DNA of 44,050 nt from Bacillota bacterium (lineage in GTDB: Bacteria; Bacillota; Clostridia; Oscillospirales; Acutalibacteraceae), in contig JAEWUH010000235.1 of the NCBI GenBank assembly GCA_023397245.1, positions 1 through 44,050 of the forward strand, in the 5' to 3' direction. Shown here piece by piece: positions 3,101 through 38,437 of the stretch. The notes beneath the pieces are model-generated. The model was not told the origin of the DNA. It saw nothing but the letters and a program-made list of their open reading frames with translations, and did not search any database. The number at the start of each line of letters is the position of its first letter. The first letter of the stretch is position 1. The position numbers and the translations under genes were made by a program.

Positions 3101-3241
3101 CAGTTATAGTTGAGACAAAACCGAGCATGATAATAGCGGCGGGGCAAATACCGTATTTTTAAAAACGTGCCGGTGTGCATGGGTATTTACCCTGTTAGGG
3201 CGGGGCTCAAACCTCGCCCGGTCTTACATAATCTTTTTGGT

Positions 3242-4579
3242 TTATTCGTGCTTCAGCCCTTTCAGCGCGGGGTTATTGATGAGCTTTCCCTCTTTTGTAT
3301 AACGCGAACCATGGCACGGACAGTCCCATGTGTTTTCGTCGGGATTCCATTGCAGACGGCAGCCCAGGTGCGCGCACCGGCGGGAAGGTGCGGAAAACAG
3401 CCCGGTGGTAAGGCCCGCAACCGACTGCCCCGCGTCCGTAAACAGGTTTTTGGCGGACGCACCCATGTTGAACCGCTGCGGCGAAAACACGTCGGCGCAG
3501 TCGTTTTCCCTGCCGCAGATCATATCCGTAAGGATCATGGCGGAGGCCATGGAGGTAGACATACCCCATTTTTTAAAGCCGGTCGTCACAAACAGATTGG
3601 GCGTGGATTCCGCAAAGCGGCCGATATAGGGCACGTTGTCCCAGGTAACGCAGTCCTGTGCGGACCAGTTGCAGACCTCTTTGCTTTTCGGGTAGAATTT
3701 CTTGGCGGCTTTACGGAGCTTTTCATAGCTGCTCGCCTGCGGGTGCTTTCCCGAACGGTGTGCGCCTCCGCCGAAAAGCAGAAGGTCGCCGTAATTGCGG
3801 AAGGAGTACGCGTTATTCGTATCGATGCTGAGATACATCCCATCCACCTGCGCCGCGTTTTCCAGCGCCAGCACATAGGAACGTTCCTGATGCATACGCG
3901 CAAAATACCACCCCGGCACATTGATGAACGGGAAGTGCGACGCAATCACAATCTGGTCTGCCGTCACCCTGCCGTGGTCGGTAATGACGACATCGCCCCG
4001 TATTTCGCGCGCCATGGTATGTTCGTATATGGTCAGATCGGCTGAAATCGCCTTTAAAAATTTCAAGGGATTGAACTGCGCCTGATCCGCAAAGCGCAGC
4101 GCGGATTTTACCGGAAACGGCAGACCGGTTTTCGTAGTCAGCTCCGCTTCGATTTTCAGGGTACGCGCCGCATCCAGCTCGTCTTCAAGAGGCTTTACAT
4201 CCTCCAGCGTATAAAGATAGGCGGACTTTGTCTCCAGTTCGCAGTCGATATTGTTTTCCGCGATAATATCCCGGTACATCTTTATTGCGCGCTGATTTGC
4301 CCACGCATACTGCGCCGCTTTTTCCACCCCGAAGTTGTCAATGAGCTGACGGTAAATCAGGCTGTGCTGGCAGGTGATTTTCGCCGTCGTATTCTTCGTC
4401 ATTCCACTTGCGGTGGTGGAACCTTCCAGCACGGCCACGTCCAGCCCCTGCTTTTTCAAAAGATACGCGGTAAGCAGTCCGGCCATTCCGCTCCCGATCA
4501 CCGCGACCTGCACGACATGATCGCCATCCAGCCTTTCCCTTTCCGGAAAAGTACAGCTTTTGCTCCAGATTGATTCCAT
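3242..4579 (-). CDS. FAD-dependent oxidoreductase with a C-terminal Rieske [2Fe-2S] domain (YhfW-like architecture)
   Basis: N-terminal dinucleotide fold VAVIGSGMAGL. C-terminal Rieske ligand motifs CAHLGC....CPCHGSRY. Confidence 0.8.
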   Translation of the reverse strand: MESIWSKSCTFPERERLDGDHVVQVAVIGSGMAGLLTAYLLKKQGLDVAVLEGSTTASGMTKNTTAKITCQHSLIYRQLIDNFGVEKAAQYAWANQRAIKMYRDIIAENNIDCELETKSAYLYTLEDVKPLEDELDAARTLKIEAELTTKTGLPFPVKSALRFADQAQFNPLKFLKAISADLTIYEHTMAREIRGDVVITDHGRVTADQIVIASHFPFINVPGWYFARMHQERSYVLALENAAQVDGMYLSIDTNNAYSFRNYGDLLLFGGGAHRSGKHPQASSYEKLRKAAKKFYPKSKEVCNWSAQDCVTWDNVPYIGRFAESTPNLFVTTGFKKWGMSTSMASAMILTDMICGRENDCADVFSPQRFNMGASAKNLFTDAGQSVAGLTTGLFSAPSRRCAHLGCRLQWNPDENTWDCPCHGSRYTKEGKLINNPALKGLKHE

Positions 4580-30538: not shown

Positions 30539-31465
30539 TTAATCAAACACACCGGTGGAAAGGTAGCGCTCGCCGGTATCCGGCAAAAGGGCAACGATAA
30601 GTTTTCCCTTGTTCTCCGGACGCGCTGCAAGCTGGGTTGCGGCATAAACCGCTGCGCCGGAGGAAATGCCCACCAGCAGCCCTTCCGTGCCTGCAAGATG
30701 CTTTGTGGTTGCAAAAGCGTCCTCGTTGGCCACGGTAATCACTTCGTCAAGGATTTTGGTATTCAGGATATCCGGGACAAAGCCCGCGCCGATGCCCTGA
30801 ATCTTATGCGGGCCGGATTTTCCCTCGCTGATAACCGGAGAGCTCGCCGGCTCCACGCCTACAACCTTTACGTCCGGGTTCAGCTTTTTCAAAGCCTCGC
30901 CAACACCGGTAATGGTTCCGCCCGTACCGATGCCCGCTACGAAAATGTCGACCTTGCCGTCGGTGTCCTTCCAGATTTCCTGCGCGGTGGTCGCGCGGTG
31001 AACGGCAGGATTGGCCGGGTTTACAAACTGGCCGGGGATATAGGAATTCGGAATTTCTGCCGCAAGTTCATTGGCTCTGGCGATGGCGCCCTTCATCCCC
31101 TTGGCTCCTTCGGTCAGGACAAGCTCCGCGCCCAGCGCGGCAACCAATCTGCGGCGCTCAAGGCTCATGGTGTCCGGCATGGTCAGGATAATGCGGTAAC
31201 CCTTTGCCGCGGCGACAAACGCAAGGCCTACTCCGGTGTTGCCGCTGGTCGGTTCGATAATGGTGGTATCCTTATTGATTAAGCCTCTTTCCTCGCCGTC
31301 CTTAATCAGCGCGTAACCGACTCTGTCTTTTACAGAGGAAAGCGGATTAAAGTATTCCAGTTTGCCGGCAATCGTGGCTTCCAGATTCTTTTCCTGCTCA
31401 TAATTGGCAAGCTCCAAAAGCGGTGTGTTTCCGATCAGGTCTGTAAGATTTTTTGCAATTTTCAT
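30539..31465 (-). CDS. cysK: Cysteine synthase A (O-acetylserine sulfhydrylase)
   Basis: LIGNTPLL, the PLP-lysine region [15 protein letters not shown] and [17 protein letters not shown] lies 6 nt before the ATG at 31465. Confidence 0.9.
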
Positions 31466-31515
31466 AATGATCACTCCTAATATAATAATTCAGATTCATA
31501 AATGTAAAGAATATC

Positions 31516-31584
31516 TTAGCGACAACAGCGGCAGCAGACGGTTCCCAGGCAGTAAGTACCGCGCTTACATTGAACAGGTTTCAT
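31516..31584 (-). CDS. 22-codon polycysteine leader ORF upstream of cysK (MKPVQCKRGTYCLGTVCCRCCR)
   Basis: GGAGG (31596-31592) lies 7 nt before the ATG. Six of 22 codons are Cys, four of them in the last six codons. The ORF sits between the promoter at 31671-31643 and the cysK start. It is below the ORF-track size cut-off. Confidence 0.45.
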   Translation of the reverse strand: MKPVQCKRGTYCLGTVCCRCCR

Positions 31585-31642
31585 TATACCGCCTCCAATT
31601 ACATATTATTCATATCAATTTAGTATTGTTTATGTTAATGCT

Positions 31643-31671
31643 ATTATAGCTCCGCTTTTTTATAAAGTCAA
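31643..31671 (-). promoter_or_regulatory. Near-consensus sigma-A promoter for the cysK leader
   Basis: On the minus strand: TTGACT (31671-31666), 17-nt spacer, TATAAT (31648-31643). It lies directly downstream of the clpP terminator. Confidence 0.6.
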
Positions 31672-31722
31672 TAGGGCCGTAAAAATTTTTATGGCACTGC
31701 TTTGCAATCGCACTATTACATC

Positions 31723-31748
31723 AAAAAAGCCGCCACAACAGCGGCGGC
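31723..31748 (-). terminator. Intrinsic terminator of clpP
   Basis: GC stem gccgcc / ggcggc followed by TTTTTT on the minus strand, 8 nt after the clpP stop. Confidence 0.75.
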
Positions 31749-31755
31749 AGCTCTT

Positions 31756-32337
31756 TTATTTGCTTTGGACAATTGCGTCAATCAGCCCGTAAGCCTTTGC
31801 CTCCTCGGCGGACATAAAATTGTCCCGGTCCGTATCGACTTCTATTTTCCCGATTGGATTGCCGGTATTCCGGGCCAGTATCTCGTTGAGTTTCTTTTTG
31901 GACTTCAGCACATGTTCCGCCGCAATCTGAATATCGGAAACCGGACCTTTTGCGCCGCCCGACGGCTGATGAATCATGATCTCCGCGTTGGGAAGCGCAA
32001 AGCGCTTGCCTTTTGCCCCGCCCGACAGCAAAAATGCACTCATGCTCGCCGCCATGCCGATGCAGATAGTGGATACATCACATTTGATATAATTCATCGT
32101 ATCATAAATCGCCATGCCGGCTGTAACGGAACCGCCCGGGCTGTTAATGTACAAATGAATATCCTTACCGGGATCTTCGGATTCCAAAAACAGCAGCTGC
32201 GCAACAATCAGGCTCGCTGATTCATCACTTACTTCTTCTCCGAGCAATACGATCCGATCTTTTAACAGTCTGGAAAAAATGTCATAGCTTCTTTCTCCGT
32301 GAATCGTCTGCTCAACAACATAAGGAACCATATTCAT
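31756..32337 (-). CDS. clpP: ATP-dependent Clp protease proteolytic subunit
   Basis: N-terminus [27 protein letters not shown], as in Bacillus ClpP. Catalytic Ser in GMAASM and catalytic His in MIHQP. The ATG at 32337 overlaps the upstream stop as ATGA. Confidence 0.9.
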
Positions 32338-35870: not shown

Positions 35871-36105
35871 AAAATAAAAAAGCCCTTGCCCCTGAAAAAT
35901 CAGGGACAAGAGCATTCACTCCTGCGGTACCACCCAAATTGGCGAATCAATCGCCCGCTTGTTCCATACACCATGATGTATGCTTCCTTGATAACGGGCA
36001 AAGTTCCCGTCGAAAACTACTAAGCTGCGCTTTTCGTTCCGCCCTCATAAGTCCATTCAGCCTGCCGCATCCTGCCGCAATCGCACCGCCTGCGGCTCTC
36101 TGAGT
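35871..36105 (-). promoter_or_regulatory. T-box riboswitch leader, probable Trp specifier (UGG)
   Basis: Minus strand: stem I begins with an AGAGAG motif. The specifier-loop context is GAA-UGG-A (UGG is the complement of 36055-36053). The T-box sequence is AAUUUGGGUGGUACCGC (35940-35924). A terminator (gcucuugucccug / caggggcaagggc plus U6) follows at 35913-35875. Confidence 0.8.
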
Positions 36106-36407
36106 GAATGGAATGCATGCTTACTATTCTTAATCACCGGTTTGTGGTCTTATTCTCTTTGTCAATTATTATATGCACATCGTCTGAAAATGTCAAGCAT
36201 AATTTTCACTGCCGGTCTGTCCGCCATACCGTTGTTTTTTCCGCAGTCTGTTTCATCCGGGCCGCCCGAATTGGAAACAAACCGGTAAATATGGTATAAT
36301 ATATTTTTCAAATTGTCAAATATATCCGTGCCGGTAAAATTTCCGGTCTTCCTTCCGATATATCTTTAAGGACGTTAAAACATGAGAGCTTAATGAGGTG
36401 TATAATA

Positions 36408-37060: not shown

Positions 37061-38437
37061 GTGAAATTATCTTTGTCCGGCGTAAAGGACATGACTCAGG
37101 GAAATCCTTATAAGCTGATTTTTGCATTTTCCATTCCACTTTTAATCGGCAACGTATTCCAGCAGCTGTACAATATGGTGGACAGCATCGTGGTCGGTAA
37201 TTTTGTGGGAACAAAAGCGCTGGCCGCGGTAGGCACGGGCTTTCCGGTCATCTTTATGCTCAGTTCTCTGTTCATCGGGATCGGCATCGGCACCACGATC
37301 ATGATCTCCCAGTATTTCGGCGCCCGGGATATGGAAAGCCTTGAAAATACCGTGAATACGGTTTACACCGCGATGATGATCGGCTGCATTCCGCTGACCG
37401 TGATCGGCATTGTGTGCAGCGGGCCGCTTCTGGAACTGATGAACGTTCCGAAGGACGGAACGTTTGAAATGGCAAAAATCTATATGATCGTTATCTTCGC
37501 GGGAATCATCGGAACCGTCGGATACAATATCAACGCGGGCATCCTGCAGGGGTTGGGCGACAGCCACACCTCCCTGCTGTTCCTGCTGATTGCTACGATC
37601 ATCAACATTGTGCTGGACCTTCTGTTTACCATCGCCTTCGGGTGGGGGGTGTTCGGCGTCGCGTTTGCCACGATCATCTCGGAATTCTGTTCGTGGGTTT
37701 TCGGCATTTCCTTTATTAACAAACATTATTCGTTTATCAATATCAATGTGTTCCGGTTCCGGTTTGACGGCGGCCTGTTCAAAAAGGCGATGAAGCTCGG
37801 CATCCCGTCCGGGGTACAGCAGGCGCTGTTTTCCGTGGGGATCATGGTGATGCAGGCGCTGGTAAACTCCTACGGCTCCGATTTTATGGCCGGCTTCAAC
37901 GGCGCGAACAAGATCGATACGTTTGCGTTCATGCCGATTCAAAGCTTTGCGACTGCGGTTACCACGTATGTGGGCCAGAACGTGGGCGCTTCCAAGCTGG
38001 AACGCGTAAAATCCGGCACCAGCGCGGGGCTTGTGCTTTCCGTCGGCTCCAGCGTGGTGATCTGCGCGGTCATCTACCCGCTCAGCGCGCTGCTGATGCG
38101 CATGTTCAGTCAGGACCCGGACGTAATCCTCTCCGGTGTGGCCTACCTGCACTGCGTGCTTCCGTTTTATCTGCTGCTGGCGCTGCTGTTCATTATCAGC
38201 GCCGTTCTGAAGGGCGCCGGCGAAATGATGGTCCCGATGATCGCCACTTTCGTTTCCCTGTGGTTTGCCCGCGTGCCCACCGCCTACCTGATTGCAAATC
38301 TGTGGGGAAAGGAATACATCTACTATTCCTACGCGGTCGGCTGGTTCCTCGGCTTTGTGATCGCCTACGTATATTATCGATCCGGCAGGTGGAAAAACAA
38401 AAGCATTGTTTCCGGCAGCCGCCCCAATACAGAATAA
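37061..38437 (+). CDS. MATE family efflux transporter
   Basis: 12-TM profile. The N-terminus PYKLIFAFSIPLLIGNVFQQLYNMVDSIVVG is MATE-typical. GTG start 7 nt after AAGGAG. Confidence 0.85.
   Translation: MKLSLSGVKDMTQGNPYKLIFAFSIPLLIGNVFQQLYNMVDSIVVGNFVGTKALAAVGTGFPVIFMLSSLFIGIGIGTTIMISQYFGARDMESLENTVNTVYTAMMIGCIPLTVIGIVCSGPLLELMNVPKDGTFEMAKIYMIVIFAGIIGTVGYNINAGILQGLGDSHTSLLFLLIATIINIVLDLLFTIAFGWGVFGVAFATIISEFCSWVFGISFINKHYSFININVFRFRFDGGLFKKAMKLGIPSGVQQALFSVGIMVMQALVNSYGSDFMAGFNGANKIDTFAFMPIQSFATAVTTYVGQNVGASKLERVKSGTSAGLVLSVGSSVVICAVIYPLSALLMRMFSQDPDVILSGVAYLHCVLPFYLLLALLFIISAVLKGAGEMMVPMIATFVSLWFARVPTAYLIANLWGKEYIYYSYAVGWFLGFVIAYVYYRSGRWKNKSIVSGSRPNTE

Follow-up and report, generated by a model that had tools for sequence, protein, structure and literature searches.

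The window, by which we mean the whole 44,050-nucleotide (nt) stretch analysed here (contig JAEWUH010000235.1), carries on its minus strand cysK, the gene for cysteine synthase A (O-acetylserine sulfhydrylase). The gene stands behind a promoter of its own, an operator-like box and a short open reading frame (sORF) of 22 codons (Table 1). Six of the 22 residues specified by this sORF are cysteines, and four of the six fall among the last six residues in the arrangement CC-R-CC. On balance, and from comparative sequence evidence, we are inclined to read the sORF as a leader peptide whose translation would sense Cys-tRNA. An original prediction, made from the DNA letters of the window, had placed the promoter, the GGAGG, its spacer, the ATG, the ORF, the stop codon, the 50-nt gap to cysK and the terminator of the upstream clpP gene; on re-reading, all of these coordinates were correct. 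The identification of the downstream gene also stands, its product passing the NCBIfam equivalog cut-off for cysK. Transcription would start at about position 31636, which would give a 5' untranslated region (UTR) of approximately 52 nt, the distance from the end of the -10 hexamer to the leader ATG being 58 nt.

Table 1. Features of the cysK leader region, followed by other elements named in the text. Positions refer to the window unless a related locus is given; SD, Shine-Dalgarno sequence; aa, amino acids; SAM, S-adenosylmethionine; ABC, ATP-binding cassette.
Feature	Position	Strand	Remarks
Intrinsic terminator of upstream clpP	31748-31729	minus	Delimits the cysK regulatory unit on its 5' side
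Promoter of the cysK leader	31671-31643	minus	-35 TTGACT 31671-31666, 17-nt gap, -10 TATAAT 31648-31643; 11 of 12 consensus matches
Operator-like box TACTAAATTGATATGAATAATATG	31625-31602	minus	Early transcribed region, between -10 hexamer and leader SD
Leader SD, GGAGG	31596-31592	minus	7-nt spacer to leader ATG
Leader ORF MKPVQCKRGTYCLGTVCCRCCR, 22 codons and TAA	31584-31516	minus	ATG at 31584; TAA 31518-31516
Cys cluster, codons 17-21, TGC TGC CGC TGT TGT (C C R C C)	31536-31522	minus	71 to 59 nt before the cysK ATG; presumed ribosome stall site
AU-rich 50-nt spacer, leader stop to cysK start	31515-31466	minus	Holds the cysK SD AGGAG, 31478-31474
cysK (cysteine synthase A / O-acetylserine sulfhydrylase), 308 aa	31465-30539	minus	TIGR01139, 454 bits against a cut-off of 351
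Hairpin and T-run after cysK	~30510-30474	minus	Terminator read by eye
11-mer GCCGCTGTTGT, first copy	31745-31735	minus	In the clpP terminator hairpin
11-mer GCCGCTGTTGT, second copy	31532-31522	minus	In the Cys block of the sORF
Sequence before the sORF, TGAATAATATGTAATTGGAGG...ATGAAA	31612-31592	minus	Resembles the sequence before cysK
Sequence before cysK, TGAATTATTATATTAGGAG...ATGAAA	31496-31474	minus	Resembles the sequence before the sORF
T-box leader	35899-36146	minus	106 bits; UGG (Trp) specifier
ABC transporter operon	35824-32986	minus	PF04392 substrate-binding protein, permease, ATPase
MatE gene	37061-38437
Cys-dense short ORF MWPTCTACFRFICCWRCCSLSAPF	38136-38210	plus	Out of frame within the MatE gene
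Terminator-bearing leader, L028	~3990-4160
Terminator-bearing leader, L045	~1400-1600
Terminator-bearing leader, L096	~1990-2190
Terminator-bearing leader, L098	~3150-3355
Terminator-bearing leader, L042	~2800-2950
Terminator-less leader with sORF MYSIEFIMLRHNFRNGRMCCSK, L088	upstream of 2221	minus	Promoter, box and sORF before O-acetylhomoserine sulfhydrylase
Leader ORF MKEKSISFFRCLQQKLLLRRKLPACILL, L002	2869-2955

Among the 779 ORFs of at most 60 aa in the window, the leader ORF included, two hold at least four Cys within six codons; the other one, MWPTCTACFRFICCWRCCSLSAPF, lies out of frame within the MatE gene and is a chance ORF. Cysteine makes up 1.6% of the residues of 38 long window ORFs, in which two Cys-Cys dipeptides occur in 12,017 residues. 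The 308-aa CysK protein itself contains no cysteine, nor does any of the 16 homologues checked, and cysteine is present in all 38 other long ORFs of the window. Being free of cysteine, CysK could be produced while translation of the leader is stuck.

The nearest named homologues of this CysK (88-98% identity) belong to Caproiciproducens, family Acutalibacteraceae, class Clostridia, in keeping with the Firmicute host supposed in the original prediction. Close relatives were collected by exact-protein look-ups, with CysK identities of 98, 95, 94, 92, 90, 89, 88, 88, 86 and 84%. All 10 distinct Caproiciproducens leaders (CysK 86-98% identical) possess an sORF led by an SD and bearing clustered Cys codons, and the order promoter, box, SD, Cys-cluster sORF, AU-rich spacer and cysK is found in each of them. 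Each of the 10 lineages has either a Cys pair or a C-x-C cluster. The leader peptides, with the identity of the CysK behind them, are MKPVQCKRGTYCLGTVCCRCCR in the window (100%), MKSVQYKMNIDCQGTVCCRCCR in locus L162 (98%), MKFILFKIDLCSIGLICCRCCL in L163 (95%), MKFVLFKLDLCSVGILCCRTCL in L164 (94%), MKKLYYLRAGRNVYCRSEQFCCETLNEIL in L166 (92%), MKNQYLFSARRTFSRRNRRCSCGCLVKIL in L167 (90%), MNRLFFLRAGRNIYCCRL... in L169 (89%), MNRLFFLRAGRNIYCCSL... in L170 (88%), MKRLHFLRANRNIYCCGL in L172, which is C. galactitolivorans (88%), and MDALFFLRAERNVYCPSLQMRRCCA in L175 (86%). Endings found in the genus include ..RNVYCRSEQFCCETLNEIL, ..RRCSCGCLVKIL, ..RNIYCCGL and ..QMRRCCA. In the aligned leaders a CTATTGAC...TATAAT block is common to all Caproiciproducens members and to L001, and an SD-like purine run is preserved in every orthologous leader.

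In the subgroup to which the window belongs (window, L162, L163 and L164) the sORF has a constant 22 codons, closed by TAA, TAA, TGA and TAG, respectively, at one position. Its Cys codons vary only synonymously, between TGT and TGC. Substitutions in codons 2-15 are distributed over the three codon positions as 32/33/29, without bias, and from this evenness the amino-acid sequence of codons 2-15 is unconstrained. As judged by these alignments, the sORF evolves as one would expect of a regulatory leader peptide, for which translation and particular codons matter and the product does not. A second Caproiciproducens subgroup keeps the series L-R-A-G/N-R-N-I/V-Y-C with synonymous variation and a position bias of 16/13/32. 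Between lineages the peptides vary in length from 11 to 44 aa. In L170 the leader ORF reaches to within 17 nt of the cysK start codon, and in L169 it continues for 14 nt beyond that codon; by extending so far it would bring leader-translating ribosomes across the cysK ribosome-binding site (RBS) in these two relatives. Across the genus, then, the sORF, its SD and the clustering of Cys codons are kept and synonymous and non-Cys positions vary, as the original prediction had proposed to check.

Beyond the genus, scans of one-genome-per-species and metagenome contigs gave 160 loci with CysK proteins 64-85% identical to that of the window; the metagenome scan alone gave CysK matches of 64-75% identity only. 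In 148 distinct distant cysK upstream regions we searched, within 220 nt, for an SD-preceded ORF with tandem Cys codons. Nine of these Clostridia leaders matched (CysK 64-85%), compared with 0.53 +/- 0.69 in dinucleotide shuffles (maximum 3 in 200) and with none on the reverse strand of the same 148 regions. Seven of the nine have the architecture of the window (promoter, box, GGAGG, sORF, AU-rich spacer, cysK) together with a recurrent R-C-C-R core, their peptides being MQIHRKERCCR, MKIHRKERCCRG, MKIRIRQRRCCRCV, MRKPYGYRRCCRHEGAENA, MRNLKDFFRCCRHIMRLSS, ..NICCRKAF.. (Ruminococcus flavefaciens Y1) and ..GRMRCCCACAHEK. Among 16 terminator-less cysK leaders, 15 have their first Cys pair at a distance of 64-82 nt from the start codon that follows, and this spacing holds though the position of the sORF stop varies, from 55 nt upstream of cysK to 14 nt within the gene; the regularity may reflect common descent or a geometric requirement. 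An Arg residue recurs beside the Cys pair (R-C-C-R or C-C-R) in the window and in L027, L030, L031, L040, L044, L045, L075 and L169. It is encoded by CGC, CGT, CGA or AGA, and since the codons differ the preference seems to be exerted at the level of the amino acid or of the tRNA.

As a control, 263 upstream regions of other genes in the same loci were searched in the same way and gave five matches, all five adjoining cysK and four of them standing before transsulfuration genes. L045 and L088 stand before O-acetylhomoserine sulfhydrylase; L028, whose leader has five consecutive Cys, stands before a cystathionine gamma-lyase/synthase-family gene; and L096 and L098, with a CCLCCC leader, stand before a SAM-dependent methyltransferase, which is counted twice. 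The three gene families behind the control matches are sulfur or SAM related. A Fisher test of cysK against control regions gave an odds ratio of 3.3 (p = 0.04), a value that understates the enrichment because the control set contains true positives. Four of the five control matches are followed by an intrinsic terminator. Strong hairpin and U-tract terminators follow the Cys-run ORFs of L028, L045, L096/L098 and L042, and the genes behind them include O-acetylhomoserine sulfhydrylase and cysK in L045, the methyltransferase adjoining cysK in L096/L098, and cysK in L042. The segment right after the Cys run is complementary to the 5' arm of the terminator in L045 and L096, offering an alternative pairing; no antiterminator was resolved in L042 with simple ribosome constraints. 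Going by their sequence layout, the leaders of L028, L045, L096/L098 and L042 are classical attenuators in Clostridia. Rfam had no match to these terminator-bearing leaders, nor had Pfam or NCBIfam to their peptides. The leader of L088 is of the terminator-less form, with its Cys pair 67 nt before the start codon of the O-acetylhomoserine sulfhydrylase gene.

The regulatory layout given in the original prediction holds for the leader peptide; it had overlooked the operator-like box. This box occurs once in the window, where 0 copies are expected by chance, and all relatives keep it at the same position, even L001 and L173, in which there is no sORF. Two divergent Rrf2-family genes lie directly upstream of cysK in most relatives. 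One of the relatives' Rrf2 proteins is without the Cys triad and has CymR as its best NCBIfam match (121 bits, below the cut-off of 195), and the other possesses a C-x6-C-x6-C motif. In the window lineage an AraC-type gene and clpP are found in place of the Rrf2 genes and the box is retained; the genes around cysK are clpP, the AraC-type regulator and those of a two-component system, and the 44-kb window contains no Rrf2 gene. The box agrees at about 17 of 20 specified positions with what we take to be the Bacillus subtilis CymR consensus. In the distant loci, matches to a loose regular expression for the box showed no correlation with neighbouring Rrf2 genes, and the expression was uninformative. 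Within the spacer, a vague resemblance to a second operator copy was seen in Caproiciproducens only, and none in the distant leaders. From its position and conservation the box is probably the operator of an Rrf2/CymR-type repressor, and the leader peptide is probably a second layer atop repressor control, not an alternative to CymR-type control. Control by CymR and CysK, as in Bacillus, Staphylococcus and Clostridium acetobutylicum, resembles this arrangement in the conserved box after the promoter and in the Rrf2 genes that lie beside cysK in relatives; in C. acetobutylicum an Rrf2 gene adjoins cysK (CAC2236-CAC2235). It differs in that no leader ORF is found there, whereas here an sORF lies between box and cysK and the window has no Rrf2 gene.

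The means by which the leader might act on cysK was sought with several programs. A terminator search found no terminator-like site between the sORF (31516) and cysK (31465), as the original prediction had stated, and none in the aligned relatives. The T-box covariance model had no match in 31300-31800 at E values up to 10, Rfam 15 (S-box/SAM riboswitch and other cis-regulators) had none in the cysK leader, and no Rfam family matched in the leaders of ten related loci. RNAalifold returned no consensus structure in 4 or 9 genus leaders and no antiterminator overlapping the ORF. The AU-rich helix proposed earlier (31571-31564 with 31509-31501) had to be abandoned, for it is not conserved: in L162 its 5' arm changes from AATGTAAG to AATACAAA without compensation. 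With neither a terminator nor a conserved helix present, and with the cysK RBS open, the signal is most likely read out after transcription and without the help of RNA structure. The label originally given, a cysteine-sensing translational attenuator, is therefore kept in part: the conserved Cys-codon leader of cysK remains, and the word translational is dropped, no RBS-sequestering structure being predicted or conserved in the genus.

We propose the following course of events. A strong sigma-A-type promoter would start transcription, probably gated by a repressor of the Rrf2/CymR type on the box at +10 to +35. The transcript would first present a well-initiated 22-codon ORF, of which the only selected content would be the frame, the length and Cys codons 17-21. 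With plentiful Cys-tRNA(Cys), ribosomes would finish the leader ORF and terminate; with scarce Cys-tRNA(Cys), they would stall on the Cys pair approximately 60-70 nt upstream of the cysK start codon. The stall would raise the output of CysK, which, as a Cys-free protein, could still be translated, and cysK would in this manner respond to cysteine. As to the read-out, our favoured but tentative guess is that the long-lived stalled ribosome would form a 5' roadblock and keep an RNase J-type enzyme from degrading the cysK cistron in the 5'-to-3' direction, by analogy with the induced stability of ermC mRNA. Transcription tends to outrun translation in Firmicutes, and since coupled attenuation would be hard under such circumstances, a roadblock design would suit these bacteria. 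In Bacillus, stalled ribosomes stabilise downstream mRNA, and translation of that mRNA is not needed (PMC3997798).

Several observations weigh against such a sensor. No read-out element was found in the window leader, be it a terminator, an Rfam family or a conserved structure. The minimum free energy of the leader is no better than that of shuffles (z = +0.9 to +1.5 for the window, mean +0.17 over 16 such leaders), and the predicted unpaired probability of the cysK SD is 0.46 in the free leader and 0.33 with the stall region held single-stranded. As for the roadblock, a strong SD close to the 5' end might confer stability on the mRNA whether or not cysteine is scarce. In the second subgroup there is conservation at the amino-acid level before the Cys pair, of which a pure codon sensor needs none; this hints at an additional nascent-chain requirement. 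The sORF is missing in L001 (CysK 85%) and L173 (84%), the nearest relatives outside the genus. In L002 (CysK 80%) the leader ORF MKEKSISFFRCLQQKLLLRRKLPACILL has only two scattered Cys, a TGC TGC pair being present in another frame, so that it is either a decayed sensor or the product of an indel in a metagenome-assembled genome. By this distribution the leader element is dispensable and patchy.

Among the other explanations, the one that fares best, though we think it unlikely, is translational attenuation in the manner of mycobacterial polycysteine sORFs or of ermC, with pairing that hides the cysK RBS and a stalled ribosome that breaks this pairing. Such a mechanism has been demonstrated for mycobacterial polycysteine sORFs, and in L030 (z = -3.4), L027 (z = -2.2) and L031 (z = -1.65) the stretch beneath a stalled ribosome has an unusually high complementarity to the cysK RBS; in L030, holding the stall site single-stranded lifts the predicted SD accessibility from 0.33 to 0.83. 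In the window, however, this complementarity is below shuffle expectation (z = +0.91), as it is in 8 of 10 genus members (z = +0.5 to +2.2), and the accessibility of the SD does not rise on stalling. The failure of RNAalifold to find a consensus in 9 leaders, folding no better than shuffles and the lack of conservation of the AU helix point the same way. Sequestration of the RBS by the Cys region was accordingly rejected for Caproiciproducens, on predictions only, and is possible for L027, L030 and L031.

It is improbable that the sORF serves to deliver ribosomes to cysK. In such an antenna or re-initiation scheme plentiful cysteine would raise CysK and stalling would lower it. In its favour, a stimulation of downstream initiation by leader genes has been proposed (PMC4833913), the spacer is unstructured, and the sORF reaches or enters the cysK RBS in L170 and L169. 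The 50-nt gap nevertheless exceeds the distances of approximately 10-16 nt over which the effect is proposed (PMC4833913), cysK has a strong SD of its own, and stimulation of cysK by cysteine conflicts both with a repressor-type box and with the terminator-bearing Cys leaders of relatives, the logic of which is induction on starvation.

Slightly less credible again is a scheme in which Rho would act in the leader or at the beginning of cysK, by termination or polarity, until a stalled ribosome lifts the effect. Rho was suggested for terminator-less Cys leader peptides by Seliverstov et al. 2005 (PMC1262725), an intrinsic terminator is missing here as well, and a Rho-dependent read-out was among the possibilities raised in the original prediction. 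We found no positive evidence for it: the untranslated stretch is just 50 nt long, AU-rich rather than C-rich and followed by a well-initiated cysK, which makes it a poor loading site, and the aligned leaders have no conserved C-rich tract.

We give equally little credence to a functional small Cys-rich peptide, binding metal, acting in redox reactions or serving as precursor of a peptide made by the ribosome and modified after translation (RiPP), whose position before cysK would be incidental or a matter of co-expression. The conserved L-R-A-G/N-R-N-I/V-Y-C series of the one subgroup, with its synonymous variation, and the Arg that recurs beside the Cys pair through different codons would fit such a peptide. 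In the window subgroup, on the other hand, 14 of the 22 residues show no codon-position bias among relatives with CysK 94-98% identical, and length varies from 11 to 44 aa across lineages. Eight leader peptides had no match in Pfam or NCBIfam, and no maturase (e.g. radical SAM) or transporter genes of the kind expected for a RiPP or SCIFF-type peptide lie nearby.

That the Cys codons have no coding function, having arisen by chance or from a DNA-level constraint such as the -35 of a second promoter or part of an operator, is very hard to credit: TGT TGY does contain TTG, the Cys pair of L166 forms TTGTGA-17-TATAAT and the spacer holds a promoter-like TTTACA-18-TATATT, but a promoter-like -35 on the Cys pair fits 1 of 17 leaders only, the first pair of the window (TGC TGC) is without TTG, the spacer site would initiate downstream of the cysK SD, and frame, SD, start and stop are all conserved, with an enrichment specific to strand and frame. 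The second promoter with TGTTG as -35 and the spacer promoter, the latter being unproductive, were rejected as candidates for these reasons.

Two repeats within the leader region may be mentioned. The clpP terminator hairpin and the Cys block of the sORF share the 11-mer GCCGCTGTTGT, and in transcripts that read through the terminator its 3' arm could base-pair with the Cys region; since relatives have other upstream genes, this is probably a coincidence. The sequence before the sORF also resembles that before cysK (Table 1), and by this resemblance the leader ORF module may have arisen via duplication of the 5' end of cysK.

Amino-acid-sensing leader peptides are textbook knowledge in Proteobacteria and are known in Actinobacteria, and the cysteine genes of Firmicutes are usually attributed to T-boxes, S-boxes and CymR. 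A survey of 2010 described amino-acid leader peptides as then unknown outside Proteobacteria and Actinobacteria, except for its own His example in bacilli. In Firmicutes they have been reported rarely, as a predicted His leader in bacilli and an ilv leader in Listeria (PMC5864092), and our literature searches found no report of cysteine leader peptides in this phylum. The Listeria case, Rli60 (PMC5864092), is comparable in that the CodY repressor is set in series with a leader peptide in a Firmicute, as box and sORF are here.

The cysK leader appears to share the sensing principle of the known systems and to differ in anatomy from the classical and mycobacterial types. Closest in content are the leaderless polycysteine sORFs of the mycobacterial 'Cys ribulon' (Canestrari et al. 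2020; 10.1101/834739), which likewise have at least two consecutive Cys codons upstream of cysteine-metabolism genes, let the ribosome read the supply of Cys-tRNA, need no intrinsic terminator and occur at several sulfur loci per clade. Two Cys codons in a row are enough for attenuation to respond to cysteine in mycobacteria (10.1101/834739). The sORF of the window, however, has a 5' UTR of about 52 nt from the inferred start and a GGAGG, and lies behind a repressor-type box; the RNA duplex that hides the RBS in mycobacteria is neither predicted nor conserved in Caproiciproducens, which belongs to another phylum. The actinobacterial Cys leader peptides predicted by Seliverstov et al. 2005 (PMC1262725) precede cys or cbs operons and resemble ours in having Cys runs near the leader stop and no conserved terminator; they are restricted to Actinobacteria, are unrelated in sequence, and were explained by Rho, for which the AU-rich 50-nt spacer here is a poor substrate. 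The uORFC-8-2 motif before cysS in Rhodobacterales (PMC8632094) has two tandem Cys codons (UGC and UGU) at about codon 14-15, comparable to codons 14-18 here, but a tRNA synthetase gene is regulated, conserved stems and an intrinsic terminator are present, and the hosts are alpha-proteobacteria.

With the trpL and hisL attenuators the window leader has in common an SD-led ORF rich in codons for the end product, and differs from them in having no terminator or antiterminator; the leaders of L028, L045, L096 and L042 fit the classical type. The ermC and ermA leaders of Firmicutes show that a ribosome stalled in a short 5'-proximal ORF can raise expression of the downstream cistron. Their stall, unlike the one proposed here, depends on an antibiotic and on the peptide, and the ermC hairpins hide the RBS, of which there is no sign in the window leader; stabilisation is what we hypothesise for the latter.

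Taken further, and speculatively, the leaders described above could constitute a 'Cys ribulon' of Clostridia in two forms, with leader ORFs before cysK, O-acetylhomoserine sulfhydrylase, a cystathionine gamma-lyase-family gene and a SAM-dependent methyltransferase. The form found in the window would then be a new class of attenuator, terminator-less and structure-less, in which a ribosome stalled at a fixed distance, approximately 65-80 nt upstream of the start codon, would protect or activate the cistron as a physical roadblock.

Elsewhere in the window, the only T-box is a leader with a UGG (Trp) specifier ahead of an ABC transporter operon (PF04392 substrate-binding protein, permease and ATPase); by this specifier the operon would seem to encode an uptake system under tryptophan control. 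In relatives the operon's ATPase adjoins the Rrf2-cysK region.

By their distribution, Cys-codon leader ORFs are a recurrent and selected feature of the cysteine and transsulfuration genes of Clostridia, and one that can be stacked on a repressor-controlled promoter. Ribosome-based cysteine sensing would be extended to Clostridia, in terminator-bearing and terminator-less forms at several sulfur-related genes. The terminator-less form raises the question of how a stalled ribosome could signal to a gene 60-70 nt downstream without an RNA switch. Cultured carriers of the element are Caproiciproducens galactitolivorans, Clostridium sp. KNHs216 and Ruminococcus flavefaciens Y1. The leader ORFs deserve annotation, and could mark sulfur-metabolism regulons in gut and fermenter Clostridia.

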